From the IMG/VR virus record IMGVR_UViG_3300032797_000730: 64,000 nucleotides of DNA; one strand, written 5' to 3'. The stretch is from an uncultured virus (IMG/VR IMGVR_UViG_3300032797_000730) (taxonomy: Duplodnaviria; Heunggongvirae; Uroviricota; Caudoviricetes). The notes under the pieces are model-generated. The model did not search any database. It was not told the origin of the DNA and was given only the letters and a program-made list of their open reading frames with translations. Within the stretch, counting starts at the first letter, position 1. The number at the start of each line of letters is the position of its first letter. Shown here piece after piece: positions 19 to 60,542 of this stretch. A program made the translations under genes and the position numbers.

Positions 19-1020
19 GTGTTCCCGGACCGCGAGGGCGGCTACCCGGCCGTGTTCACCTTCCAGGCCATCACGGTCGACGCGGCCGAGCAAGAGAAGT
101 CCGAGGTCAAGGAGAAGTATGACCGCAACATGGCCGACGAGCCCTTCAAGGAGCTCTATTTCTTGAAGAAGGTGAATCAAAGCGCCATCCAGGTAACTGG
201 GCGGTACAAGGAACGCCGTACCATCGAGATCCCGCTCGCTACGGTGAAGTTCTACCATGAATACCTCCAGAGCGACATCGATAACGTTACCATCGATGCC
301 AAGCTGGTTGGCTTCCCGTTTTTCCCTGCCAGCCTGTCCTCGCTCGCATTAGAGGGCGCCTTCAAGGTAACGGGAGACTTCGAGATATCGCTACAACGCG
401 TAGCATTGGGCGGGGGCGTGTACGAGTGGCAGCGGGCGTACAAGTTCATCGAGGGATCGGCCGACCTGGAAAACAGCGACCTCTCGAACCTGGTGGCGCT
501 GATAAAAGGCGCGGTGAACGACGCCGAGCGGGAGCATGCCATCGCCGTCATCATGGAGGAGCTTCGTCGGAATGGCACGTATCTCGACATCTACAACGCG
601 AGAAACCTGCTGCGCCAGAGGGGCATCAACGATGCCCTGCTCGACGACGCTGCGATAGAGGCGGCGCTGAACGGCGTGTGCATGAAGAAGGACTACGACC
701 CCACGTACTTCCATGCCTTGAAAGATGTCCAGGAGAAAGGGACGCCCATCTACTATGGCGACCAGGGCTTCATCTTCAGGATCGAGGGGCGCTGGGTCTG
801 GGAGACCCCGAAGCCGAACACCGCGACGTACATCTTTGATGGCACGAAGCCCATCGCCGACCTGCGCTCGTTTCTCTCACGCACTTCGAGGATGGAGATA
901 CTCAAGAACGCGAGCCTGCAAAAAGAGATGGGGTACAAGGGACGTTCCATACACCCGCCCGAGGACGAGAACGGCGAGGGATTCTCCCGCTGGATGCGGG
1001 ACATACAATTCACGAGATGA
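19..1020 (+). CDS. hypothetical protein (probably 5'-truncated by window edge)
   Basis: 333-aa ORF, frame open from position 1, strong GC3 codon bias, ATGA overlap with next gene. Confidence 0.8.
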   Translation: MFPDREGGYPAVFTFQAITVDAAEQEKSEVKEKYDRNMADEPFKELYFLKKVNQSAIQVTGRYKERRTIEIPLATVKFYHEYLQSDIDNVTIDAKLVGFPFFPASLSSLALEGAFKVTGDFEISLQRVALGGGVYEWQRAYKFIEGSADLENSDLSNLVALIKGAVNDAEREHAIAVIMEELRRNGTYLDIYNARNLLRQRGINDALLDDAAIEAALNGVCMKKDYDPTYFHALKDVQEKGTPIYYGDQGFIFRIEGRWVWETPKPNTATYIFDGTKPIADLRSFLSRTSRMEILKNASLQKEMGYKGRSIHPPEDENGEGFSRWMRDIQFTR

Positions 1021-6878: not shown

Positions 6879-7085
6879 ATGATGTACACTGCGACGGAGG
6901 CCTTCGAGGCCCCAAACATAATGGAACTATCGAACGTGATAAGCCACTTCTTGGATGACCTGTACAAGAGGCATACCATCGTGAGGGTGGTGCATTCGTA
7001 CACGACGTTGATGCGGCCCCCTCATGGGCACGTCAATGAGAGGTGCTTCCAGACGATGATCATCTACGAGTACGGGACGATGTGA
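6879..7085 (+). CDS. hypothetical protein
   Basis: 68 aa, SD GGTGA upstream. Confidence 0.7.
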   Translation: MMYTATEAFEAPNIMELSNVISHFLDDLYKRHTIVRVVHSYTTLMRPPHGHVNERCFQTMIIYEYGTM

Positions 7086-7150
7086 ATGGCCAAACATGAC
7101 GTTTTTAAAGACTTCGCTGATGGCTGCTGTGGATCTTATAAAATGACGAG

Positions 7151-7813
7151 ATGGTGAAAAAAACGACAGAAAAGATAACTGCGAGGGACGTGGCCCTTGG
7201 GGTGCTCAAATCTACCGGGTGCCCAATGACGGCCGCTCAGATATACGCCGAGAGCAAGGCTATGAAGATGGAATGGATATCGGAGGCCGAGTACCCGGCA
7301 GCGGTGATAAATTCCCTCATGGTGAGGGATGTGAGGACAAAAGGGGCGGCGTCCGACTTCATAAAGGTATCATCGGAACCTAACACATGGGCCCTCAACA
7401 CGGATAAGAGAAGAGCAGAGGCCCCTTCCAAGGAGGCGGTAATACCGATAACGGACGCGCCGACCGCCAAGAAAGTGATCAACATCGTCCAGAGGATCAA
7501 CATCAAGAAGCTTGGCATAGAGAACGAGCACGAGCTGGAACTCGTTATGTGGGGCGCGATGTGCGGCCGGTGGCCCGACTGGATAAAGTGGCGCAAGAGT
7601 TTCGGAGGGCGGACGTGTGACGTGGGGCTCTCTGATGTGGCAGTGGAGATGAAATACATAAAATCCATGGCAGATAAGGACCGCCTCGTGGGGCAGGTAC
7701 TTGACTATCTTAAAGACGTGGACGAGGTAGTCGTGGTCGCCATCGATGAGAAGGGGCTCCTCAAGGAATCTCCACTCAAGGATTTTGACAATGTATTCAT
7801 GGTAGTAATGTAA
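7151..7813 (+). CDS. HARE-HTH domain plus PD-(D/E)XK restriction-endonuclease-like protein
   Basis: N-term ARDVALGVLK..PMTAAQI...SDFIKV..NTWAL (HB1/ASXL/restriction endonuclease HTH); C-term E..CD......VEMK...GQVLDY nuclease motifs. Confidence 0.7.
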   Translation: MVKKTTEKITARDVALGVLKSTGCPMTAAQIYAESKAMKMEWISEAEYPAAVINSLMVRDVRTKGAASDFIKVSSEPNTWALNTDKRRAEAPSKEAVIPITDAPTAKKVINIVQRINIKKLGIENEHELELVMWGAMCGRWPDWIKWRKSFGGRTCDVGLSDVAVEMKYIKSMADKDRLVGQVLDYLKDVDEVVVVAIDEKGLLKESPLKDFDNVFMVVM

Positions 7814-9767: not shown

Positions 9768-9932
9768 TCAGAACACCCCCAGGTACTTGCCAGTATCGCC
9801 CGTGTTGGAGGGGCAGTCCTCGTTGTCGCAATACTCTTCAACGGGGATGTCCTCGCCGATGTGCTCGGCCTCAGGGCCCCTTCTTGTTTTCAACTGGTTC
9901 CCGCATAGCGGGCACCTGTGGCTTTGGCTCGT
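9768..9932 (-). CDS. zinc-ribbon protein with apparent ACG start (not in ORF track)
   Basis: (M)SQSHRCPLCGNQL...YCDNEDCPSN...LGVF; stop abuts NDT ATG; no ATG/GTG/TTG upstream of the first CxxC. Confidence 0.6.
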   Translation of the reverse strand, partial: TSQSHRCPLCGNQLKTRRGPEAEHIGEDIPVEEYCDNEDCPSNTGDTGKYLGVF

Positions 9933-10335
9933 TCAACGTCGCCTCCTTTTTTATCATAATGGGTTTCTGTGGTACTGGCTTCACGGGGATGTTATCCATT
10001 TCGCCCCTTAACTCGGGGTATCTATCCTGGAGAACTAGCGTGAGATCCCTGGTCAACTTGTCCATCACCAGGTTGATGCACTTCCCCGCAATGTTCATGT
10101 CCTCGCCTCCCATCCTCAAGGAGGCGAGCTCGGCCTGCTTCTCCCTTATCTCGGGCGCGTCGGGGTTCTTGGGGTTCTTGAGCTCGTTGAAAAGCTCGAG
10201 CGCCCGCTTGCTGTTGGCGCCCATGATGGACGTGATCTGCCCGAGCACGAGTGACAAGGGCAGGATGTCCGTCTTCGCGTTGATGTAGTCCAACTTTTTA
10301 TTCATTTCGTTTAACTTGTGTATCAAGTCTTTCAA
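9871..10335 (-). CDS. hypothetical helical protein
   Basis: 154 aa, TTG start overlapping ArsR stop. Confidence 0.7.
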   Translation of the reverse strand: MKDLIHKLNEMNKKLDYINAKTDILPLSLVLGQITSIMGANSKRALELFNELKNPKNPDAPEIREKQAELASLRMGGEDMNIAGKCINLVMDKLTRDLTLVLQDRYPELRGEMDNIPVKPVPQKPIMIKKEATLNEPKPQVPAMREPVENKKGP

Positions 10336-10631
10336 GAGGTTTTGGCTCGTTTCTCGCTCACCTTTTCAAGGTCTATGGTTATCGATTTATGTTTCAACTT
10401 TATCATTGTTTTCCCGCCGGTGCCGTCCGTGAAGTAGTATTCCTCGACGAGGCCCGCCTCTTGTAAATCTTTCAGGTAGGCCCACGCCGTGCTCCATGCC
10501 ACGTCCAGCGTCTCCGCTATCTTTCCCTTTGGCAAGGGGGACTTGGCGAGCGCCAGGAGCATCCGGATCTTCGTGTTGTTGGCCAGCACCCGCCCTATCT
10601 CTCTCGCCTGCGCTTCAGTGATTACCTCCAT
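10332..10631 (-). CDS. ArsR-family winged-helix transcriptional regulator
   Basis: VLANNTKIRMLLAL...IAETLDVAWSTAWAYLKDLQEAGLV. Confidence 0.85.
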   Translation of the reverse strand: MEVITEAQAREIGRVLANNTKIRMLLALAKSPLPKGKIAETLDVAWSTAWAYLKDLQEAGLVEEYYFTDGTGGKTMIKLKHKSITIDLEKVSEKRAKTS

Positions 10632-17296: not shown

Positions 17297-17319
17297 GTAA
17301 AACACGCACGCGGAGGCCC

Positions 17320-17469
17320 TGGCGGCCGGGCAATAGACCGCCAAAAACCAAGGCTGCCGGGCGGGAGAAAGGTTCCCGTCCAGAGGCGGTGGTGTCCTCA
17401 CGCTCAACGCCTGTGCGAGGGCGCGCGGAGAAGGCCATCGTCGCAGGGGCTCGCACAGCTCCTGGCAGC
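17320..17469 (+). ncRNA. unassigned highly structured RNA-like element
   Basis: TGGCGG/CCGCCA hairpin; closing stem GCTGCC(17353)/GGCAGC(17464-17469) enclosing GGGCGGGA/TCCCGTCC, GAGG/CCTC and CTGTGCGAG/CTCGCACAG; no credible ORF. Confidence 0.5.
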
Positions 17470-17478
17470 TATAACCCT

Positions 17479-17574
17479 GCGAGGGTAGCTCAGAAGCAGA
17501 GCACCGGGACACCAGCTTGAAGCCAGTGGCTGCATACCCGGCACGCGGAGGTGCGAGTCCTCCCCCTTGCTCCA
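17479..17574 (+). tRNA. tRNA with 21-nt anticodon-arm insertion, probably tRNA-Cys(GCA)
   Basis: Acceptor GCGAGGG/CCCTTGC, U73, encoded CCA; D stem GCTC/GAGC; AC stem CCGGG/CCCGG; T stem GGAGG/CCTCC; removing the insert leaves loop CT-GCA-TA. Confidence 0.65.
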
Positions 17575-17592
17575 AACAACGAGGCAAACAAT

Positions 17593-17850
17593 ATGACAAA
17601 GATCATCAACGCGGAACACTCGCCGAACATCAACGGCAAGGGCACCTGGTACGTCCTCATCGAGGTGGAGCGGTGCACCGAGAAGCACCCCGATCCATGG
17701 GACATCCATACGAAGCCATGCCAGAAGTGCGGAGGATACAGGGGGCATGGGGACAGGATAGAAACGTACAACGGTTTTGCAACGTTACAGGAATTGAAGG
17801 AATGGATAGATAGCAGGGTAGAACAGCATGGTAGTTCGCCGGACTCATAA
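17593..17850 (+). CDS. hypothetical protein overlapping tRNA-Met exon 1
   Basis: 85 aa with PCQKCGG, typical codons; TAA stop lies in the tRNA anticodon loop. Confidence 0.6.
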   Translation: MTKIINAEHSPNINGKGTWYVLIEVERCTEKHPDPWDIHTKPCQKCGGYRGHGDRIETYNGFATLQELKEWIDSRVEQHGSSPDS

Positions 17851-18012
17851 ACTGGTGGCGTGCTGGCAGATTGCGATTTGGCACTTTGGAAACACGCCTA
17901 GAAACGGCGCAGCCAAGACACCCCGTGCCCCAATAAATCCCCCTAACCGGGATGGCAGAAGGGCACGTCTTGGGACATCCGGTCATCGCAGGTTCAAATC
18001 CTGCCCCTGCTT
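17812..18012 (+). tRNA. initiator-type tRNA-Met(CAT) with 127-nt intron (17850-17976) at 37/38
   Basis: AGCAGGG/CCCTGCT (A1-U72), D stem GAAC/GTTC (A11-U24), CCGGA-CTCATA|A-TCCGG, T arm GCAGG-TTCAAAT-CCTGC; BHB central helix CUCA/UGGG with 3-nt bulges. Confidence 0.85.
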
Positions 18013-18036
18013 TTATGTTAACACGAGGCGAGACAA

Positions 18037-18918
18037 ACGAGCGAAAACAAGCCATACAAGTGCACGAAGTGCGGGTACAACCACAAAAGTGGTAAAATCT
18101 ACAACGAGCACAAGCAGTTCGCCGAGGTGAAGCCCACCGAGATCCAGGTAAAGGGCCAGGGCTCTTCACCGGTGGGGGGTTCATTCGACGAGCTGGACAA
18201 GATAGACGACGGCAGGCCGGGCGGCGGGGCGATCCCTATCCCGTCGACGAAGATGATCGTGACCAAGGACCATATCATCATCGGCAAGAACGCCACGGCC
18301 GAGCCCATTAAAAAGGGCGAGATCGTGAGGCCAGCGGGCATCGAAGATGACAAGAGAAGCCTGCTCCAGGCCTACAAGGTGGAGACGGCCAAGGACGGGA
18401 AAATGACGGGCACCGCCAGCCAGGCGGGCAAGATCATCAAGACGGCCAGGGTAGTCATCGAGCCCGAGAAGAAGGATTCTCAAGGGGCGTTCACGGTCAA
18501 GCACCTGGACGCGTTCCTGCTACACGCTAACCGGAAGCAGGTGAACCTGCTCACGACCGAGTTCCCGTGGGTGGTGAAGGATGGCGCGAGGCTCAAGGCC
18601 AACTGGCGGGTAGGGTGCTGGGAAAAACCCGACGGAGGGCGCATCCCGTTCACGGTCGAAGAGATGGTGAAGTACGCCGTCCTCATCGACAAGGTGAGCG
18701 GGAAGCACGCGGGGCTGCTCAAGAAGCGGCGCGCCAAGAAGGCGCTACGTGACTCGGCATACCCAAACACGTGGACCGAGCACGCCGCCGGGATCAAGGG
18801 CCAGTGCAAGGATTGCGTTAACAGGGGCGCCAAGTCGTGCGGGAACATGACCGTCGACGAGATCGTCAACGTCCTCGAGGGGAAGGCCAACTGCCCGATC
18901 TACAAGAAAGAGGGATAG
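18037..18918 (+). CDS. protein with N-terminal C2H2-like Zn finger and C-terminal Cys cluster; apparent ACG start
   Basis: In-frame extension upstream of GTG 18127: (M)SENKPYKCTKCGYNHKSGKIYNEH; SD-like GAGGCGA 5 nt before ACG. Confidence 0.7.
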   Translation, partial: TSENKPYKCTKCGYNHKSGKIYNEHKQFAEVKPTEIQVKGQGSSPVGGSFDELDKIDDGRPGGGAIPIPSTKMIVTKDHIIIGKNATAEPIKKGEIVRPAGIEDDKRSLLQAYKVETAKDGKMTGTASQAGKIIKTARVVIEPEKKDSQGAFTVKHLDAFLLHANRKQVNLLTTEFPWVVKDGARLKANWRVGCWEKPDGGRIPFTVEEMVKYAVLIDKVSGKHAGLLKKRRAKKALRDSAYPNTWTEHAAGIKGQCKDCVNRGAKSCGNMTVDEIVNVLEGKANCPIYKKEG

Positions 18919-18921
18919 GCC

Positions 18922-19074
18922 ATGTTGAAGGTAGAGATATTTTGTGGCAGCGCTTCCGATGTTAAAAAGGAATGCAATGCGTTTCTCTCGGGCATCAAGA
19001 GCGAGGACGTGGTCGATTTTAAAATTGCCGAGAACGGCATCTTCATAACCATCGTGGTGATGCACGAGCTTTGA
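18922..19074 (+). CDS. small hypothetical protein (not in ORF track)
   Basis: MLKVEIFCGS...IVVMHEL, 50 aa, fills gap, TTGA overlap. Confidence 0.65.
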   Translation: MLKVEIFCGSASDVKKECNAFLSGIKSEDVVDFKIAENGIFITIVVMHEL

Positions 19075-19508
19075 GGGCCGTGGCGCTGGTGATATCGAGG
19101 ACCCTCGTTCCGGGCATCGAGGGCAGCCAGCTGGGTGCCATGCTACGGGACGTGTTCAGGAAGTCGAAGAACACGTGCTTCGTCGTGGAGGAGCTACGCC
19201 AGCCCATCATGGCAATGATGGAGCAGTATTCACAAGGGGGGTGTGCGATGGTATCCATCGTGCCAAAGCTGCGGAAGTACAAGCGAAAGCAGGATGCCTA
19301 CCTGGCCAGGGCCGTGGAAATGGCGGAGGCGAGCCAGGAGTGCTTCGCGTTCCATGACCTGGCGGACTGGACAAACTCCTCGGTGATGATAGCGGCCGCG
19401 TTCAAGGAGATGCACCCGGAGTATCTCCTGGCCACCTATCTCGTGATAGATGGAGCAGTGATAGAAGTGACGCTCGACGAAATGAAGAGGAGGAGCGGGT
19501 TCTTATGA
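19071..19508 (+). CDS. hypothetical protein (possible SLOG/Rossmann-like)
   Basis: 145 aa; AYLARAVEMAEASQECFAFHD resembles SLOG RN..M......AF.D. Confidence 0.55.
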   Translation: MRAVALVISRTLVPGIEGSQLGAMLRDVFRKSKNTCFVVEELRQPIMAMMEQYSQGGCAMVSIVPKLRKYKRKQDAYLARAVEMAEASQECFAFHDLADWTNSSVMIAAAFKEMHPEYLLATYLVIDGAVIEVTLDEMKRRSGFL

Positions 19509-22500
19509 TGATGCCGCCACTGATGAACGAGCACATCTTCATCAAGGTAGCGCCCATCACCGACACGCGCACGATATGCATCATCAACAAGAACCACGAG
19601 ACCATGACCAAGGACGGGGAGGAAGTGCCCGTCTGGGTCGTGGCGGGGAAGGAGAAGGACGGCCGCCACTGGATGCTCAGGGTGCACGGGCCCCGCGTGC
19701 GGCCATCGTTCGGCGTGCCCTACGAGGAATTCTGGAAGGTGATGGACGATACCAGGCTCACGGGGTTCAGGAGGGGGCCAGACTCGCCATTCGGGGAGCC
19801 GGTGATGGAGGTGTTCACGAAGCTGCCAAAGGATATAGGGTCGGGGGAAGCAGCCATGCGGAACTTCGTGAGCCACTCGTACCAGGGAGACGTGCGGTTC
19901 GAGGACAAGGTGGCAATCGACCTTCGTATATGGGAGGGCTACATGACGTTCGATGCCAATGCCGTCGGTGAATTTGGATACGTGGAGGATAGATACGTTG
20001 GCCCGCCGCCAGAGGGGTACGAGAAGTTCTACGTGCCCAAGACGAAGGTGTACTTCGATTCGGAATGGAACATGGCAATGCTGGCGGACGGGGAGGGGCG
20101 GATACGGTTCAGGAGAAAGAAAGGGCAGAAGGATGACCCGACGAAGTATGAAAAGGCCAAGGTAATAACAATCTCCTTCCTGGAAGCGGTGGGATGGAAG
20201 TTCCACGTGTTCACGTGGCACCCGAGGGTGAAGGTGAAGTGCAAGTTCCAGGAGCAATACCTCTCGCGCATCGCCGAGAAGGCGAGGAAGCGGCTGCCAC
20301 AGATGCCAAGGGAATACACGGCCGAGATACACGCGTGCACGAGCGAGAGGGAGTTGCTCGTGGCGATGGTGGATTACCTGGCAGGGGCGCAGATAGATTG
20401 TCTCATCGGGTTCAACGCGTTCTCCGGGATACACGGGATCGGGGGGGACAAGAAGTGGATAAATGGGTTTGACATGCCCTGGCTGTACAGGCACTGCATG
20501 GTCAACCCGAAGCACAATACTAACTGGGTGCCGAGGGACCCGGACGTGAACCTCCATCGCATATCGCCTGTTGGCGTGACGTACATGCGGGAGGAGTTCG
20601 GGAAGGAGGAAGTCGTTATAAGGATGATAACGTGCCTGGACCTCTGGCACATGATGAGCTTCTTCGAGTACCACAAGAAAGACAAGCTCAAGAACGAGAA
20701 GCAAGGAACGTTCATGGAGAAGTACCTGGGGATAGGGAAGTATCCACGGAAGTATAAGTGGGTCTGGGAGGAATGGGAGAAGGAGCCGCTCGACGAGAGA
20801 AAGTACAACATGGCCGACACCGAGGGATGCGCGGGCGTGGAGCAGATATTTAACCCGAGCGAGGACTGCTTCAACAGGGCCACGTTCTCTGGCGCCAGCT
20901 GGGACGCAGGGATGTCGGCGAGCAGGCTGCACGACCTGGTGAACCTGCACCTCTACAAGGACTGCTATTACCTGGATTCAAAATCATATGATGACCGGCA
21001 CGAGCGGATTTGGTTATGGGGAGGATTTAGCGATGAGAAGGTAGGGGGGTTTAACAAGGAGGTTAACAAGGGGATGCACAGGATGGCCATCGGCCTGGAC
21101 TTCAACAAGTTCTACCCGATGGCGGGGATCGGTTCTAATTGCGCCCCCGAGACGTTCGTGAACATGACCAGGCTCAAGCTTGACAAGCGGGGCCTGGTCG
21201 TCGTGGACAAGCGCCCCTATCTCAAGCACGAGGTGACGGACTGGCCAGCGTTCGTGAAGGAGTGCAAGGAGTTGAGGGAGAGGGACGCGCTCACGAGGAC
21301 GCTCGCAGTGCAGGATGTCATCACGAATGACCTCATCGGCTGGAAGGAGACAGAGTATCTCTGGGGAGACTTGATAGTTACCCCGGCGGGGCTGTTCAGG
21401 AAGGACATCATCGCCAAGAATGTCAAGGCGTTCCAGGACATGCTCAAGAACAGGAAGGCGCTCCAGAAGATAGCGGACAAGATACTGGAGGCTATCAAGG
21501 ACAAGGACGCGTTCGAGTACGTGCTGGCGGACCTGCGGCAGTTCTCCTACAAGCAGTACATGAACGGAAGGTTCGGGGTGCAGGGGCTGGAATCTGATAG
21601 GCTTTACATGCTGGCGCTGTTCAACACCTATACCCTCGTGTGCCAGGAGATAATCAAGGAATGTATCAGGTACATCGAGGAGGAGCTCGTGTATCCGGTG
21701 AACCTGGCGAGCACGGATTCCATGTTCGTCGATGCCAAGCTGCCCCCGAAATGGATCGAGGACAAGGGAAAGGTGTACTTGCAGGAGGCCGAATGGCTCT
21801 CGGAGAAAGTGCAGGAACACGCCCAGGAGTTTGCCATGCACGAGTTCAACATCAGCGACCCGAGCGTGTTCACGCTTGAATGCGATGTCATCTGCAAGAC
21901 CATGTTCATCGAAAACATGCGGTTTTACATCAAGAACGTGATGTGGAGCAAGGGGGTCATCCTGGACCCGCCGCAGCTGGAATTCAAGGGAATGAAGAAG
22001 GTACGGCGGGAAGTGGCGGCGATAACCGAGGACGTGCAGGAGCGGCTCGGCAAGATATACATGAACGACGGGACGTTCCAGGACATCCAAAACGAGGTCA
22101 AGAAGCTGCACGCCGAGTTCTCGTCCAAGCCACTGTGGGAGGTGTGCAAGTCCCTTCCAGTGAACCAGCCACTCGATGATTATGCCGAGACGAGCGAGCA
22201 GTTCAAGGCGTTCACGATGGCCGACAAGTACTTCGGCCTGGACGTGTCGGTGGGCGAGCGGTTCTATGTCGCCCCCGTGAAGTACTGCCCGCCCGCGATA
22301 AAGGGCATCAAGGTAGACCCGCGGCTCGGGGATGTCTTGGCATTTGACGAGGACACGCTCCCGGCGATAGAGGCCGCGGGGATAGTGATAGACGTGCACG
22401 AGCTGGAGGACAAGGCCGTGGCATCGCCCGCGGACGAGATACTCGAGATGTTCGGCACGGGATATTGGAAAATACTGTCGGCCGCGAGGATAGCCGACAC

Positions 22501-22516
22501 GACGGGTGAATTCTGA
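19505..22516 (+). CDS. polB: family B DNA polymerase with 3'-5' exonuclease
   Basis: ExoI FDSE, ExoII GFN...FDMPWL, ExoIII YNMAD; Pol A LDFNKFYP, B KQYMNGRFG, C STDSMFV; ends ADTTGEF. Confidence 0.93.
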   Translation: MMMPPLMNEHIFIKVAPITDTRTICIINKNHETMTKDGEEVPVWVVAGKEKDGRHWMLRVHGPRVRPSFGVPYEEFWKVMDDTRLTGFRRGPDSPFGEPVMEVFTKLPKDIGSGEAAMRNFVSHSYQGDVRFEDKVAIDLRIWEGYMTFDANAVGEFGYVEDRYVGPPPEGYEKFYVPKTKVYFDSEWNMAMLADGEGRIRFRRKKGQKDDPTKYEKAKVITISFLEAVGWKFHVFTWHPRVKVKCKFQEQYLSRIAEKARKRLPQMPREYTAEIHACTSERELLVAMVDYLAGAQIDCLIGFNAFSGIHGIGGDKKWINGFDMPWLYRHCMVNPKHNTNWVPRDPDVNLHRISPVGVTYMREEFGKEEVVIRMITCLDLWHMMSFFEYHKKDKLKNEKQGTFMEKYLGIGKYPRKYKWVWEEWEKEPLDERKYNMADTEGCAGVEQIFNPSEDCFNRATFSGASWDAGMSASRLHDLVNLHLYKDCYYLDSKSYDDRHERIWLWGGFSDEKVGGFNKEVNKGMHRMAIGLDFNKFYPMAGIGSNCAPETFVNMTRLKLDKRGLVVVDKRPYLKHEVTDWPAFVKECKELRERDALTRTLAVQDVITNDLIGWKETEYLWGDLIVTPAGLFRKDIIAKNVKAFQDMLKNRKALQKIADKILEAIKDKDAFEYVLADLRQFSYKQYMNGRFGVQGLESDRLYMLALFNTYTLVCQEIIKECIRYIEEELVYPVNLASTDSMFVDAKLPPKWIEDKGKVYLQEAEWLSEKVQEHAQEFAMHEFNISDPSVFTLECDVICKTMFIENMRFYIKNVMWSKGVILDPPQLEFKGMKKVRREVAAITEDVQERLGKIYMNDGTFQDIQNEVKKLHAEFSSKPLWEVCKSLPVNQPLDDYAETSEQFKAFTMADKYFGLDVSVGERFYVAPVKYCPPAIKGIKVDPRLGDVLAFDEDTLPAIEAAGIVIDVHELEDKAVASPADEILEMFGTGYWKILSAARIADTTGEF

Positions 22517-25384: not shown

Positions 25385-25882
25385 ACGAGCGACGCGGCGA
25401 AGAAAGCAAAGAAACGATACGAGGACGAGATAATGCCCGCCAACGTTCATGGGGATGACTTCGTGCTCGTGCACTCGATCACGGGGTATGGAAGGAAGGC
25501 TTTCCTCATTGACATGGTAAAGAAAGGGGCCGAGCCCTTCGGGAAAGGGGTGGAGATTGTAAAGGAGGATGCGGGCTCGGTGAAGCGCCAGGAGTTCAGG
25601 GAGGGAGAGTTCGTGTCGTATGGCGGGCAGGTGTTCGTCGCGTTCCCGCTCGCGGACCTGGATCTCATCGGGAGCGTGATCAAGGTATCGCTGCTTCGCT
25701 CGTGGATGAAATCGGACGAGGGCGATGTCGCTGCCGAGGGGCATCTTCTCGTGCTCGAGGATGGCGTGGGGGACTGCGTGGCGATAGCGGGCTGCGGCCC
25801 CGTCGAGGGAAACGATAGAAAGATAATGGCTGCTGTTGAATCGTTGATGGTAAAAACGGCCGACCCTTTTGGTGATTTTTGA
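25385..25882 (+). CDS. hypothetical protein; apparent ACG start (first ATG at 25433)
   Basis: GGTGA SD, then ACG AGC immediately after nrdG stop, in frame; ends ADPFGDF. Confidence 0.7.
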   Translation, partial: TSDAAKKAKKRYEDEIMPANVHGDDFVLVHSITGYGRKAFLIDMVKKGAEPFGKGVEIVKEDAGSVKRQEFREGEFVSYGGQVFVAFPLADLDLIGSVIKVSLLRSWMKSDEGDVAAEGHLLVLEDGVGDCVAIAGCGPVEGNDRKIMAAVESLMVKTADPFGDF

Positions 25883-42703: not shown

Positions 42704-44617
42704 TTGGTCGTAGAAATCCACCAGATATCACGGGGTAACCTTGGCCAGGAACCTGCCACGTGTGACGAGTTCCGTGGCCTGTTAAAATCACAAGATCCAT
42801 GGGTCCTCAAGAACCTTGGAATAGAATACACTGATCCTTTGGAATGGTTAAGAAAATACGACGCCGCAAGTACCATAGGAGAGATGACATCGAACCCGAA
42901 TGCCAGCGTCGGGAACCAGAAGAACTCCAGGAACAGGGCGTCCGAGATGGCCTCCCCATGGTTGAAGTTGAGGGGCCTCGACGAGCTGTGGTCATGGGGC
43001 AAGGAGGTGTTCGGGAAGGACTTCTCGCTCGACCCCGTCTTCTCCGGGAAGCTCTACATCCACAAGCTCTCGAAGCTAGACCGGCCCTATTGCGTCGGTG
43101 CGAGCTGCCTGGACATCATGCAGGACGGCCGCCCCTACGCTGACATTGTTGGCAAGCCCCCGAAACACTTCAGCTCGTTCATGGGCCAGATGTTCGAGTA
43201 TGTCCTCAACATGGTCGGCGACTGGTCTGGCGCGATAGCCGTGAGTGATTGGATGCCTGGCATGGCATACTACGTCCGCAAGGAGAAGGTTCCCGACACG
43301 GCGATACGCCAGGAATGGCAGGCCATCGTCCACAAGTTCCATAACAAGTGGCGAGAGGACGGCGACCCCCCGTTCACGAACACCTCTTTCAATTCCCCCT
43401 CGGTGCTCGAGGACATCTTCAAGACTGCCGTGTTCCCGGATGGCTCGAACGTGCTCGATTACAAGGACGAGATAATGCACGTGCAAGACGTGCTCCTCCA
43501 GTTCATGGCCGAAGGCGACCCCTCGAAGGCCGGCATCCAGTACAAGTTCCCGGTGATGACCGCCAACTTCAAGCCCGAGGACATCGGCTCCCCCTGGTGG
43601 GAGAAGGTAGCCAGGAAAAACAACGAGGGCTTCCTCAACATCTGCCACGCCGCCATGTTCGCCAGCTGCTGCCGCCTCCTCTCAGACTACAGGACCATGC
43701 TCAAGATGAAGCAGTACTCGAATGGTGGAGGGGGCATCAAGACAGGCTCTCACATGGTAGTAGCGCTCAATCTACCGGGCATAGCCAAGTCCACGAAAGG
43801 ATGGTCCGAGTTCATGGACGAACTTGGCGTGATGATCGACCACGCCGTGCGATATCTCTACATTCACAAGCACTTCATCTTGGGAAGGCGAATCAAGGAT
43901 GCATACAATCCTTTTCTCGCCAAGTTTCGTGATGATGCCGGTGATGTCCTTGACGTGGGCCCTTGGATGCACCTCAACATGTTTTTCAGCACCATCGGCG
44001 TGCACGGCGTGCCCGAGATGGTGCAGGAGTTCGGGGAGGACGTGACGGAGAAGCATGGCGCCCGGCTCGCCGAGAGGGTGCTCACGTATATCGTCAACAG
44101 GGCGAATGATTACAGCAAGCAATTCACCGAGAATGTTGGCGATGATGGCATCATCATGGTGTTCAACGTGGAACAGATACCGGCGGAATCGGCGAGCCAT
44201 ACCATGGCATCGTTCTTCGGTGACGAGATGTACTCGAACCAGTTCGTCCCGCTGGACCAGCCGATAGATATATGGAAGCGGGTAGAGATAGAAGGAAGGC
44301 TCTCCAAGATACTCACTGGGGGGAGCATGACGTTCCTGCATCTTGGCTCCGCCATGGACCCGGACCAATCGCTGCTGTTTCACAAGCGGGTGATGCAACG
44401 GAGCGGCGGGAATCTCAACCAGTTCTGCGTGGACTACGGGTTCTCGCTGTGCAAGAAATGCAACACGAAAGTAGTTGGCAGGGTCGAGAAATGCTCGTGC
44501 GGGAGGCCGATGCGGCACTACCAAAGGGTCGTGGGGTACATGGTCCCGGAGTCGTCGGTGAACCGCCCGAGAGTCGTTAATGATATAAGAAAACGTTTAG
44601 GTTACGAGCACTGGTGA
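42704..44617 (+). CDS. nrdD: class III anaerobic ribonucleoside-triphosphate reductase
   Basis: PYC, ASCCRL, GSHMVVALNLP, TIGVHG, EQIPAES, CKKC..CSCG, glycyl-radical motif RVVGY. Confidence 0.95.
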   Translation: MVVEIHQISRGNLGQEPATCDEFRGLLKSQDPWVLKNLGIEYTDPLEWLRKYDAASTIGEMTSNPNASVGNQKNSRNRASEMASPWLKLRGLDELWSWGKEVFGKDFSLDPVFSGKLYIHKLSKLDRPYCVGASCLDIMQDGRPYADIVGKPPKHFSSFMGQMFEYVLNMVGDWSGAIAVSDWMPGMAYYVRKEKVPDTAIRQEWQAIVHKFHNKWREDGDPPFTNTSFNSPSVLEDIFKTAVFPDGSNVLDYKDEIMHVQDVLLQFMAEGDPSKAGIQYKFPVMTANFKPEDIGSPWWEKVARKNNEGFLNICHAAMFASCCRLLSDYRTMLKMKQYSNGGGGIKTGSHMVVALNLPGIAKSTKGWSEFMDELGVMIDHAVRYLYIHKHFILGRRIKDAYNPFLAKFRDDAGDVLDVGPWMHLNMFFSTIGVHGVPEMVQEFGEDVTEKHGARLAERVLTYIVNRANDYSKQFTENVGDDGIIMVFNVEQIPAESASHTMASFFGDEMYSNQFVPLDQPIDIWKRVEIEGRLSKILTGGSMTFLHLGSAMDPDQSLLFHKRVMQRSGGNLNQFCVDYGFSLCKKCNTKVVGRVEKCSCGRPMRHYQRVVGYMVPESSVNRPRVVNDIRKRLGYEHW

Positions 44618-44623
44618 CGAGAT

Positions 44624-45061
44624 TTGAGCCTCAAAAACAAGGACAGTATCAAGGCCGAGGACGAGACAACCCTCGCCCTGATGAGCCAGGAGAAGCCCCA
44701 GAAAGGGGCGCCGGTAAAGCCAACCATGAAACCCCCGGCCGAGCGGCCGGTGGAACCAGCCGATCCAGCCGATCTCCCCCAGTTGAACCAGATAAACGCG
44801 GAGGGGCCGTTTCTCGACGTGAATGCCTTCGAGTACGTGCTGGCCGTTCCAAAAACGTTTGACAACCAAAAAATGTTTGATGTCGGTGGCAGGCAGTTCC
44901 TGGGGCTCGCGCCATCAAACTGGTGCGAGAACGTGAAGTTTTTCGTGAACGGCGTGCTCAAGAATTTCCAGTCCTTGAAGATCGAGCTGGACGGCACCCT
45001 GAAACTGGATTCAAGAAACAGGCCAGTTGCCCCGGTGCCAAAGGTGATCATCGATGGCTGA
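44624..45061 (+). CDS. hypothetical protein
   Basis: TTG start after GGTGA SD; Pro-rich N-terminus. Confidence 0.75.
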   Translation: MSLKNKDSIKAEDETTLALMSQEKPQKGAPVKPTMKPPAERPVEPADPADLPQLNQINAEGPFLDVNAFEYVLAVPKTFDNQKMFDVGGRQFLGLAPSNWCENVKFFVNGVLKNFQSLKIELDGTLKLDSRNRPVAPVPKVIIDG

Positions 45062-58664: not shown

Positions 58665-60542
58665 TTACATCGAACCTTCCGTGAAGTCGGTGCCTGGACC
58701 ATACGTGCCGGTGTCGAGCAGCGCTATTTCGAGCTGCCCGACGAGCACGTCGGCCTCGGTGGCCTTGGTGATGGCGCCATCGTCGTTCCGCTCTATCGTG
58801 CAGTCGAGCAGCTTGATGACGCCCGTGGTGTGCATGATGACGTATTCCACTTGCGAGAACACGACGTTGTCTCCTGGACCGAGGCCGTTGATGTAGGCAG
58901 CCATGTTTTCGTTTATCTCGGCTACCACGTTATCCCAGTCCTGGGAGGGGTCTATGAATACAGTGCCGGTGACATTTATATAAGCAGTCGTGGCCTCCAT
59001 GATGTTACCCTGGATACAGATCGGGGAATAAGCCTTCCGGTTGAAGTCAATTATCATGGACTCTATCTGAGAAACGTAGTCATAGAGATCGTAGCCCAGA
59101 TTGGCAGCAACTACCAGGGTATATGATGCCCCTCCCCAGTTGGTCTTGAAGGCGATGTCAGCGTCGGCATCGGCGGACTCGTCCACGAACATCTCGCCGT
59201 CGGCATACTCGTCCCCCGTTTCCTGGTACTTGAATTCCCAATGATCGCCAGCATCTGACGTGTCGTCATCGTTCTCGATGGTGAAAAGGTACGTGTGGGT
59301 AGGGTCCTGGCTGCCAAACCTGCAGGGAACCTGGATCTCCTGCCAGTCGGTCGGGTGGTCGGGATCAACATCTTCGATGGTGAATATCCTGTTCGAGATG
59401 GGCGTGTTCGCCACGGTCGTTGCATAGTCCGTGTTCCAGAGGTAGAGCTTGAGCCTGAGCGGGCATGGCGAGCCAACCTTCCTGGCATAGAGCGTGATGT
59501 ACTTGATCGTGAGCCGGTCTCCCGTGGGAACGAACGTCTGGCCATAGACCACGTCATCGTCGCCGTACATGGCGATGGTCTCGAACGATGTCCACGTGCC
59601 AGCCACGTCCCACGCGGCCGATGGGAACGCCACGTCGACACCAACGGTTTGGAAGCACTTCGTCGCGCGTATGGCCTCGAGCTGGCCAACCAGCTGGGCG
59701 ATTTTCTGGTAGCCAAACTGGGTGTTGACGAGTGATTTGATGCGGAGCCTGTATGCAGCGTTTGACTCGATATCGGCGCCGCCTATGGAGTTGTACTCGT
59801 TCGTGACGCTCGTGACGCCTCCCAGGCCGTCGGTGTTCTCGGTTATCTGGCCAATGCTCACGCGGCTCCCGGCCCCTGCCTCGGCGGCGACGGATGATAC
59901 CTTCACCGACACGTCCTCGGTGGCTTCGAGGCCGATGTAATAGTACGTGTTCTCCGCCGGTTCCGATGCGCCCAGCCACGTGATCTGGTCTCCAGCGTAG
60001 GTCCAATCGGTGCTCTCCGCGTAGGACGTGCCCGACTGGTTGGCGGACGTGTTGATCCACGCGATGGATGTCACGTCCGAGTACGGCCACGGGATATCAT
60101 CCGTGCCAGAAGGCGCTCCCTTCCTTATCCTGATAATGGAAGGGATCGTAGCGTCGGCCGTGGTATCGTAGGCTATCCCCGTGCGCGTGGAAAACGTGCT
60201 CCCTGTTGGCACTAGATATCCAGTGGCTGGACCGGTGCATTTGAGTATCAGGGTGGCATTCGTGGCGTTCTTGAGAAACACGCCCCTCGAATTGCCCCAT
60301 GATTGCAGTGCCCAGTCGGCCGCGTTGTCCAGGTTGATTATGTCTGCAAGCGTGCCAATGGACTTGTCCAGCTCGTTGTATTCCAATGCCTTGCTCTTGT
60401 AAACCTCCCATATCCAGCTGCCTTTTGTCGTGGAGATCCTTGGATCCATGGCGTGCAGCCTGGCGAAGGATTCCTCCAGGACCGTCGCCAGGGGCTTCAC
60501 GACATACCCGTTTGGCGTGAACCCGTAGCTCGTTTTACTCAC
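58665..60542 (-). CDS. baseplate J-like protein with inserted domains
   Basis: YGFTPNGY, L...G...GV....A..AT, SVTN....GGADIESNAAYRLR, YINGLGPGDNV. Confidence 0.88.
   Translation of the reverse strand: MSKTSYGFTPNGYVVKPLATVLEESFARLHAMDPRISTTKGSWIWEVYKSKALEYNELDKSIGTLADIINLDNAADWALQSWGNSRGVFLKNATNATLILKCTGPATGYLVPTGSTFSTRTGIAYDTTADATIPSIIRIRKGAPSGTDDIPWPYSDVTSIAWINTSANQSGTSYAESTDWTYAGDQITWLGASEPAENTYYYIGLEATEDVSVKVSSVAAEAGAGSRVSIGQITENTDGLGGVTSVTNEYNSIGGADIESNAAYRLRIKSLVNTQFGYQKIAQLVGQLEAIRATKCFQTVGVDVAFPSAAWDVAGTWTSFETIAMYGDDDVVYGQTFVPTGDRLTIKYITLYARKVGSPCPLRLKLYLWNTDYATTVANTPISNRIFTIEDVDPDHPTDWQEIQVPCRFGSQDPTHTYLFTIENDDDTSDAGDHWEFKYQETGDEYADGEMFVDESADADADIAFKTNWGGASYTLVVAANLGYDLYDYVSQIESMIIDFNRKAYSPICIQGNIMEATTAYINVTGTVFIDPSQDWDNVVAEINENMAAYINGLGPGDNVVFSQVEYVIMHTTGVIKLLDCTIERNDDGAITKATEADVLVGQLEIALLDTGTYGPGTDFTEGSM

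Follow-up and report, generated by a model that had tools for sequence, protein, structure and literature searches.

An Intron-Split, Archaeal-Initiator-Type tRNA Gene without the Third Anticodon-Stem G-C Pair and Six ACG Start Codons in a Tailed Virus of Probable Archaeal Host

The stretch of DNA analyzed here (the window) comprises 64,000 nucleotides (nt) of an uncultured tailed virus, IMG/VR record IMGVR_UViG_3300032797_000730. Upstream of its gene for a family B DNA polymerase (PolB), it carries a tRNA gene with the anticodon CAU that is interrupted by an intron, and directly behind this tRNA lies one of six genes that begin at the codon ACG. A preliminary description of the locus had proposed that the tRNA is a virus-encoded initiator, made permissive by an A-U pair at positions 31 and 39, which switches on the ACG-start and TTG-start genes of the virus once its intron is spliced. 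Our analysis leads us to file it as a virus-encoded tRNA of archaeal-initiator type, split by an intron and lacking the third G-C pair of the anticodon stem; the six ACG starts are the more striking fact, and they may well have arisen independently of it.

The tRNA(CAU) Gene and Its Relatives

Rfam family RF00005 (gathering score, 29) matches positions 17812 to 18012 (+) of the window with a score of 42.9 bits and a long insert 3' of the anticodon. ARAGORN in default mode made no call for this gene; with introns allowed, it reported a tRNA-Met(cat), 74 nt when mature, with a 127-nt intron between positions 37 and 38 (Table 1). Direct reading of the sequence gives A1-U72, G10-C25, A11-U24, and a CAU anticodon, the anticodon stem CCGGA/UCCGG being made up of C27-G43, C28-G42, G29-C41, G30-C40, and A31-U39; the discriminator is U (U73), followed by TTT and a T run, and CCA is not encoded. 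The features on which the preliminary description had been built (A1-U72, purine 11-pyrimidine 24, CAT, CCGGA/TCCGG, A31-U39, and the discriminator U) are all present in the window, as is the ACG-start gene just downstream, whose first codon comes 24 nt past the end of the tRNA. Together, these observations identify the segment as a real tRNA(CAU) gene.

Searches with PolB retrieved five related contigs that span the DNA upstream of the polymerase gene; three further PolB loci had too little upstream DNA for the presence of the tRNA to be judged. A tRNA(CAU) gene occupies the same place, in the same orientation, in four of the five: contig G001, whose PolB/tRNA locus is L021 (PolB 69% identical to that of the window; 81-nt intron), L085 (71%; 75-nt intron), L086 (73%; no intron), and L090 (80% over the first 104 residues; no intron, and a tRNA identical to that of L086). 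In the fifth, L089, with a PolB of 39% identity, none was found in the 15 kb examined. The four tRNA variants score 42.9, 50.2, 48.1, and 56.1 bits with Rfam, and ARAGORN called every one of them tRNA-Met(cat) once spliced. Among these four distinct viral sequences, 12 of the 21 stem pairs vary and 11 have changed on both sides, with no non-standard pair, a pattern that marks the tRNA as conserved, compensated, and under selection.

A1-U72, C3-G70, and U39 are kept in all four variants, as is the 7-nt anticodon loop CUCAUAA once the intron is removed. An A occupies position 31 in the window, L085, and L021, and in L086/L090 a G there makes a G.U wobble with U39; the pairs 29:41, 30:40, and 31:39 read G-C, G-C, A-U in the window and L085, G-C, G-C, G.U in L086/L090, and A-U, G-C, A-U in L021. 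At 11:24, the window and L086 have A-U, L085 has G-C, and L021 has U-A; the residue at 73 varies as well, being A in L021 and L085 and U in the window and L086/L090. Two of the features noted at the outset, the purine 11-pyrimidine 24 pair (U11-A24 in L021) and the discriminator U (A73 in L021 and L085), hold for the window but not for the lineage as a whole.

The 7.2-kb metagenome contig L086 has the same tRNA at both ends, at 91-165 (+) and 7076-7150 (-), with the open reading frames (ORFs) mirrored. This is probably an assembly fold-back and possibly a real inverted repeat.

Table 1. Features of the window discussed in the text (SD, Shine-Dalgarno site; gene letters are ours)
Feature	Coordinates	Strand	Description	Basis
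tRNA(CAU) exon 1	17812..17849	+	Acceptor 5' strand, D arm, anticodon stem 5' strand through A37	Rfam, ARAGORN intron mode, sequence
tRNA(CAU) intron	17850..17976	+	127 nt, site 37/38	ARAGORN; boundaries matched by intron-less allele of L086/L090
tRNA(CAU) exon 2	17977..18012	+	A38, anticodon stem 3' strand with U39, variable loop, T arm, acceptor 3' strand, discriminator U	Rfam, ARAGORN
SD-like GAGG of gene D	18025..18028	+	8 nt before ACG 18037	
Gene D	18037..18918	+	Zinc-finger-like, 293 codons; ACG start; homologues ATG (L086, L085), GTG (L021), ACG (L090)	
HARE-HTH domain gene	7163..7813	+	GGTGA-5 nt-ACG; G001 GGTGA-6 nt-ATG; in-frame ATG at 7151, 4 codons upstream, before/inside SD, without SD of its own	
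Small CPxCG zinc-ribbon gene	9768..9932	-	ACG is first codon past TGA, 9 nt behind AAGGAGG; G001 ATG AGC	
Gene A	9871..10350	-	AGGTGA-7 nt-ACG AGC CAA AAC; G001 ATG TCG CAA AAC	
Gene B	25385..25882	+	GGTGAT-4 nt-ACG, first codon past stop; G001 GGTGAT-3 nt-ATG; L085 also ACG	
Gene C	58665..60533	-	Baseplate wedge, phrog_6; GGTGA-5 nt-ACG AGC TAC GGG; G001 GGTGA-5 nt-ATG AGC TAT GGA	
Small ORF	17593..17850	+	85 codons, Cx3H...CxxC; ATG start with SD; last 13 codons and stop within tRNA exon 1/anticodon loop	
Second tRNA-like gene	17479..17575	+	About 240 nt upstream of tRNA(CAU)	Rfam, 41.6 bits (E-value mode)

The Intron

That the gene holds an intron in need of splicing, as had been proposed, is borne out by its relatives, the intron-less allele of L086/L090 giving the same junction as the ARAGORN prediction. 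In the three intron-bearing variants, loop bases 32 to 35 (CUCA) can pair with UGGG (window and L085) or, in three pairs, with CGGG (L021), and in all three a 3-nt bulge (ACA, AGA, or AAA; ACA in the window) separates this central helix from the 3' exon. At the 5' cut site the expected UAA is present; the window has no outer helix h', and those of L085 and L021 are offset and 2 to 3 bp long. Forcing a bulge-helix-bulge (BHB) costs 2.7 to 3.8 kcal/mol over the unconstrained fold, and on this modeling the motif is best described as a relaxed BHB. Relaxed motifs are cut by the heterotetrameric or epsilon-type endonucleases of TACK/DPANN archaea and are not known to be cut by strict euryarchaeal enzymes. 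With its 37/38 site, 4-bp helix, 3-nt 3' bulge, and exact intron-less allele, the intron looks archaeal. A group I intron was considered and rejected, the insert being too short and having no Rfam match; no Rfam family was detected inside the intron at E<=10. Among the 78 window ORFs scanned with Pfam, there was neither a splicing endonuclease nor an RtcB-type ligase.

The introns of the window (17850-17976) and L021 (4164-4242) have in common a 16-nt core, AGATTGCGATTTGGCA, and a GCCTAGRAA block; relative to L021, the window intron has some 50 extra nt that form a hairpin. The L085 intron is without the core. Retention of the core by two viruses with PolB identity as low as 69% suggests a possible role for the intron RNA itself. 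In IMG/VR, a 15-nt stretch of the core matched 63 loci, 62 of them by chance, and a pattern for intron-bearing homologues matched 12 loci, all adjacent phage tRNA arrays, with no intron-bearing tRNA among them (0/12).

Isotype of the tRNA

The A1-U72 pair is reported to show high conservation among eukaryotic and archaeal initiators and to be important for their distinction from elongators (PMC5393177), three consecutive G-C pairs at 29:41, 30:40, and 31:39 are described as conserved in initiators (PMC6393288), and C3-G70 is described as highly conserved in initiator tRNA (tRNAi) of all kingdoms (Dong 2014, PMC3950347). All four viral variants combine CAU in a 7-nt loop with A1-U72 and C3-G70, and all four lack the set of three G-C pairs. 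They also lack the 1:72 mismatch of bacterial tRNA-fMet, the viral clade having a Watson-Crick A1-U72. Purine 11-pyrimidine 24 and the discriminator A73 are further features of initiators, and U11-A24 is the elongator state.

A pattern scan built from this tRNA and run over one genome per prokaryotic species gave two matches. The first comes from Mesorhizobium and has an A1xA72 mismatch; the second, locus L094 of an archaeal metagenome-assembled genome (MAG), is a tRNA in which A1-U72 and all three G-C pairs are present and whose acceptor stem and T loop are those of the viral tRNA. No closer cellular match was found than this L094 tRNA, an initiator-type tRNA with the normal three G-C pairs (C39): its identity is 80% to the mature tRNA of the window and 77% to that of L021, compared with 73 to 76% and 65%, respectively, for two bacterial-type initiator-like phage tRNAs. 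Neither Mesorhizobium nor the L094 archaeon is plausible as the host. Exact patterns from the viral tRNA also caught 17 phage tRNAs in IMG/VR (7 plus 10 loci), none with an intron (0/17). All 15 that were inspected have a 1:72 mismatch (CxU, UxU, or AxA) and most encode CCA; the tRNAs of the 10-locus set are all bacterial type, 9/10 encode CCA, and none belongs to this viral clade. On the strength of A1-U72, C3-G70, and 80% identity to an archaeal MAG initiator, the proposal that the virus encodes an initiator-type tRNA stands, and we file it as one that would work like an archaeal-type initiator.

The L094 gene (560-1060 [-], from an uncultured archaeon) has an intron as well, 412 nt long, at 37/38, and with a canonical BHB. 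Its 134-codon ORF has a weak match to LAGLIDADG_3 (E = 0.18, below threshold), and it may represent a homing-endonuclease intron within an initiator tRNA.

Genes That Start at ACG

To compare start codons, 26 pairs of gene starts from the window and G001 were lined up by eye; a Dam methylase pair was dropped because its frames were misaligned. The window has 16 ATG, 1 GTG, 3 TTG, and 6 ACG starts, and G001 has 22 ATG, 2 GTG, 2 TTG, and no ACG starts. Each of the six ACG codons stands 4 to 9 nt behind a Shine-Dalgarno (SD) site where G001 has ATG or GTG (Table 1). SD sites in the window are mostly GGTGA(T/TC).

For gene D and the gene at 9768-9932 (-), the lack of an in-frame canonical start ahead of conserved residues is strict. 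Gene D lies in the only coding frame after the tRNA, and from the stop at 18019-18021 as far as a GTG at 18127, which is already past a conserved CxxC, that frame contains no ATG, GTG, or TTG; its spacing, CGAGGC plus 8 nt, also precedes the ATG at 17593. The gene at 9768-9932 (-) has no canonical start ahead of its conserved CPxCG. For gene C, a GTG three codons upstream of the ACG at 60533 lies inside the SD and has no SD of its own, and for the genes starting at 25385 and 10350 the next canonical codon (ATG and TTG, respectively) is downstream of the ACG and would cut residues that align with G001. ACG starts also occur singly in two relatives, L085 (gene B) and L090 (gene D); the first 26 codons of gene D are almost identical in L090 and L086, yet the one starts at ACG and the other at ATG. 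A search of the ORF starts of G001 for ACG behind an SD gave no case that lacked a canonical start next to it. Alignment and SD placement thus argue that the six window genes really do start at ACG, and the ACG starts that had been noticed are confirmed as real and plural. The several TTG starts, nrdD among them, are likewise there: four stand behind GGTGA, at the genes for NrdD and a clamp loader and at the genes at 44624 and 19071.

Editing of ACG to AUG by C-to-U conversion was considered and dropped as probably not the explanation, there being no deaminase domain among the 78 ORFs scanned with Pfam and ATGAGC sites being still present in the window. The small ORF upstream of the tRNA has a CTE...PCQKC motif, and we examined it as a deaminase; the spacing and the 85-amino-acid size are wrong. 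Frameshifting from a nearby out-of-frame ATG was also rejected, since no consistent pattern emerged over the six sites.

All six ACG starts lie in the context A-ACG-A (A at -1 and +4), and in five of the six the next codon is AGC (Ser). The 8-mer AAACGAGC occurs seven times in the window, four of them at ACG starts.

Function of the tRNA and Origin of the ACG Starts

The window encodes PolB (19505-22516), two AAA+ clamp-loader-like proteins, Dam-type methylases, a PD-(D/E)XK nuclease, RNase H, NrdD (42704-44617) with its radical-SAM activase, glycosyltransferases, and a baseplate wedge protein, and within the phage collection its PolB matches only haloarchaeal tailed viruses (10/10 records, about 24% identity). 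It looks like the DNA of a tailed, myovirus-like virus with an anaerobic archaeon as its probable host.

The explanation we prefer, with a probability of about one half, is that the tRNA is a functional, virus-encoded initiator of archaeal/eukaryotic type and that ACG starts are tolerated independently of it. Splicing endonuclease and ligase of the host would remove the 127-nt intron from the pre-tRNA (they would have to, because no viral splicing enzyme was found), and the mature tRNA, after charging with methionine, would serve aIF2 at the ribosomal P site, supplying or topping up initiator tRNA for the virus's own genes. The lineage has swapped C39 for U, with G31.U39 in one variant and a compensated A31-U39 in three, states which imply that the third G-C pair is not under its usual constraint here. 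ACG would be read as a near-cognate start by Met-tRNAi and be tolerated because the SD sets the codon in the P site and the eukaryote-like initiation machinery of the host accepts ACG at reduced efficiency; the ACG starts themselves would have drifted in under GC pressure. The ACG count does rise with G+C content, from 0/26 in G001 (50.9%) through 1/~11 in L085 (53.5%) to 6/26 in the window (56.7%), which fits AT-to-GC drift at tolerated sites.

Several observations weigh against this explanation. Two defining features of initiators are missing, the three G-C pairs and, in the window, A73, and U73 might impair methionylation of the window tRNA. The 5' splice site lacks a proper outer helix, and an endonuclease that requires a strict BHB might not cut it. 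The best matches of the clamp-loader protein are to bacterial T4-like phages. The tRNA is present in each of the five contigs that were testable or have ACG starts, and no ACG-start relative without it was found. Finally, the yeast result that we use below to separate the tRNA from the ACG starts may not transfer to an SD-led archaeal system.

The chief competing explanation is that of the preliminary description, in which a natural low-stringency initiator, through its 31:39 pair and perhaps U73, boosts the ACG, TTG, and GTG genes of the virus once it is spliced. Its foundation, the loss of start-codon accuracy that follows changes at 31-39 in yeast, is sound: in yeast tRNAi every Watson-Crick replacement of G31:C39, and C39U alone, is reported to do so, the UUG:AUG ratio going up 6- to 7-fold with G31A:C39U and about 2.5-fold with C39U (Dong 2014, PMC3950347), and the bases of these two mutants are precisely those found in the viruses. 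All four viral variants have U39, compared with C39 in the archaeal MAG initiator; the tRNA sits directly upstream of gene D; and the co-occurrence of tRNA and ACG starts, proposed as a check, gave a divided answer, with ACG starts in three of the five tRNA-bearing contigs (six in the window, one each in L085 and L090) but none in G001, which has the tRNA. The U73 variants (window and L090) hold most of the ACG starts, in a sample too small to lean on. In the yeast data reported, however, G31A:C39U raises initiation at UUG, CUG, and GUG but not at AUA or ACG; changes in the acceptor stem, at C3:G70, are those that raise all near-cognates, ACG included (PMC3950347). G001 combines A31-U39 with A29-U41 and has 0/26 ACG starts, L086 has the same tRNA as L090 and yet ATG at gene D, and the sum of GTG and TTG starts is equal in the window and G001 (4/26 in each). 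GUG and UUG are normal start codons in archaea and bacteria (PMC4705826), so the TTG genes have no need of a special tRNA. We therefore consider it decidedly unlikely that the ACG starts depend on the tRNA, and we hold the same doubtful view of the fuller version, a natural "Sui-" initiator whose non-G-C 31:39 pair, together with U73 next to A1-U72 in the ACG-rich members, would loosen the start-codon check of the host, with intron removal by a host enzyme timing the switch; that splicing turns on the ACG genes is unsupported. The independence of the ACG starts from the tRNA, a feature of the explanation we prefer, is what these sequence comparisons suggest.

Other functions, or none, have also to be weighed. 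The viral copy could serve as a back-up in the face of a host or defense nuclease that depletes the cellular initiator, with U39, A31, and position 73 making it a poor substrate. VapC-type toxins cut initiator tRNA at 38/39, and U39, which is found lineage-wide, is directly beside the loop. Phage tRNAs with anticodon-loop changes that escape tRNA-targeting defenses have been described (PMC10264068, PMC11555353). However, the loop CUCAUAA is the same in all variants, the G.U to A-U series resembles ordinary compensated drift, and no defense or nuclease partner was identified, and evasion, although a somewhat better prospect than licensing, is unlikely. CAU would also be the anticodon of an elongator tRNA-Met or of a tRNA-Ile2 that reads AUA through modification of C34, and by itself it cannot tell these identities apart; one or two of the three G-C pairs are all that is present, L021 has the elongator-like U11-A24, and the T loop is an ordinary UUCAAAU. 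Against an elongator stand the A1-U72 pair in all four variants, a distinguishing mark of initiators (PMC5393177), the retention of C3-G70, and a closest cellular match that is itself an initiator-type tRNA, and we regard such an identity as very improbable. Still harder to credit is a decaying pseudogene, or the leftover of integration into a host tRNA gene, disrupted by the 127-nt insert. It would account for U73 and the missing CCA of the window copy, for a long insert with a poor 5' half of the BHB, and for a protein ORF that runs into exon 1. Across four diverged variants, however, 11 of 21 stem pairs are compensated and none is broken, on which ground both a pseudogene and a chance match can be set aside; the gene is syntenic in viruses with PolB proteins only 69 to 73% identical to that of the window; the insert falls exactly at 37/38 with its 3' helix and bulge conserved; and replication genes lie on both sides, with no integrase seen.

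Comparison with Known Systems

The nearest counterpart of the viral tRNA is the archaeal initiator at L094, with which it shares CAU, A1-U72, C3-G70, G29-C41, G30-C40, the acceptor stem AGCAGGG/CCCUGCU, the T loop, and an intron at 37/38. It differs in being virus-encoded, in having A-U (G.U in L086/L090) in place of G-C at 31:39 and, in the window, U73 in place of A73, and in an intron whose BHB is only relaxed. The bases at 31:39 are those of the yeast G31A:C39U and C39U tRNAi mutants, which have a Sui- phenotype (Dong 2014, PMC3950347); those mutants were engineered in a scanning eukaryote, with an effect reported as limited to first-position mismatches (UUG, CUG, and GUG) and as not reaching ACG.

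A tRNA gene among the replication genes of a tailed virus recalls the tRNAs of phages and haloarchaeal tailed viruses (PMC8651126), one of which, HGTV-1, is described as having 36 tRNAs along with RNA ligases proposed to aid the removal of tRNA introns (PMC8651126). Phage copies of tRNA-fMet, unlike the tRNA described here, have a 1:72 mismatch (15 of 17 inspected), mostly encode CCA, and have no intron (0/17). A keyword search of the open-access literature, which was not a full survey, turned up no report of an archaeal virus with an intron-bearing initiator tRNA. Like the BHB introns of archaeal tRNAs (PMC4090602), the viral intron lies one nucleotide 3' of the anticodon, has a 4-bp central helix and a 3-nt 3' bulge, and is present or absent between close relatives; unlike them, it has no h' in the window and a short, offset one in L021 and L085, and a 16-nt core is common to the window and L021.

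For the ACG starts, the closest precedent is the tape-measure gene of phage Corndog, whose proposed ACG start corresponds to ATG in relatives (PMC4351075). As there, ACG stands exactly in the place of ATG, with no canonical start upstream of the conserved or observed N terminus; unlike Corndog, the viruses described here have six such genes in one 64-kb window and single cases in two relatives, each behind an SD. Near-cognate ACG initiation is known in eukaryotic and viral mRNAs, and the ACG starts here are deduced from alignment. No description of ACG starts in archaea was found by a keyword search of the open-access literature, again not a full survey.

Implications

Virus-encoded tRNAs are usually explained by codon supply or, lately, by escape from tRNA-cutting defenses. 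A probable archaeal virus with its own initiator tRNA amounts to a natural experiment on the role of the third G-C pair, and the tRNA described here has the single anticodon-stem change that in yeast is known to make start-codon choice less accurate. ACG replaces ATG at about one-fifth of the comparable gene starts, and ATG/ACG differences appear even between near-identical relatives. Gene finders will truncate or miss such genes, and the start-codon rules used for archaeal viruses need revisiting. If the tRNA and the ACG starts were linked after all, they would represent a new kind of translational takeover, in which a tRNA reprograms start-codon selection; if they are not, the window still offers a clean, testable set of ACG starts that includes a virion protein, the baseplate wedge.

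Neighborhood of the tRNA

The tRNA is flanked on both sides by viral replication genes. A blastn search with 17400-19000 against the phage collection gave no match, and the ORFs on either side of the tRNA had no significant hit in Pfam or PHROGs. The small ORF at 17593-17850 runs 39 nt into exon 1 of the tRNA and ends in the anticodon loop, its stop codon being the TAA of that loop, so 5' processing of the tRNA would strip the stop codon from its message.

A second tRNA-like gene precedes this ORF. It has G3.U70, U73, and an encoded CCA, a D loop without GG, a T loop with G at position 55, and an irregular 28-nt anticodon region that folds as an extended arm; ARAGORN called it Gly(acc) in default mode and Ser(tga), with an 8-nt intron, in intron mode. 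A homologue in L085, from 4331, has the same acceptor, D, and T arms with a different 7-bp anticodon stem and the loop AUUUCAU, and the gene is absent from G001. This tRNA was also considered as a reader of ACG and rejected, since none of the 7-nt loops that we were able to form from it gives the CGU anticodon required.

A conserved non-coding block follows the preceding gene, upstream of the tRNA module, in three viruses (window 17300-17350, L021 4008-4055, and L085 4280-4330). It consists of ACGCGGAG, a GGCGG...CCGCC hairpin, and AAACC; possible roles include those of terminator, promoter element, and small RNA.

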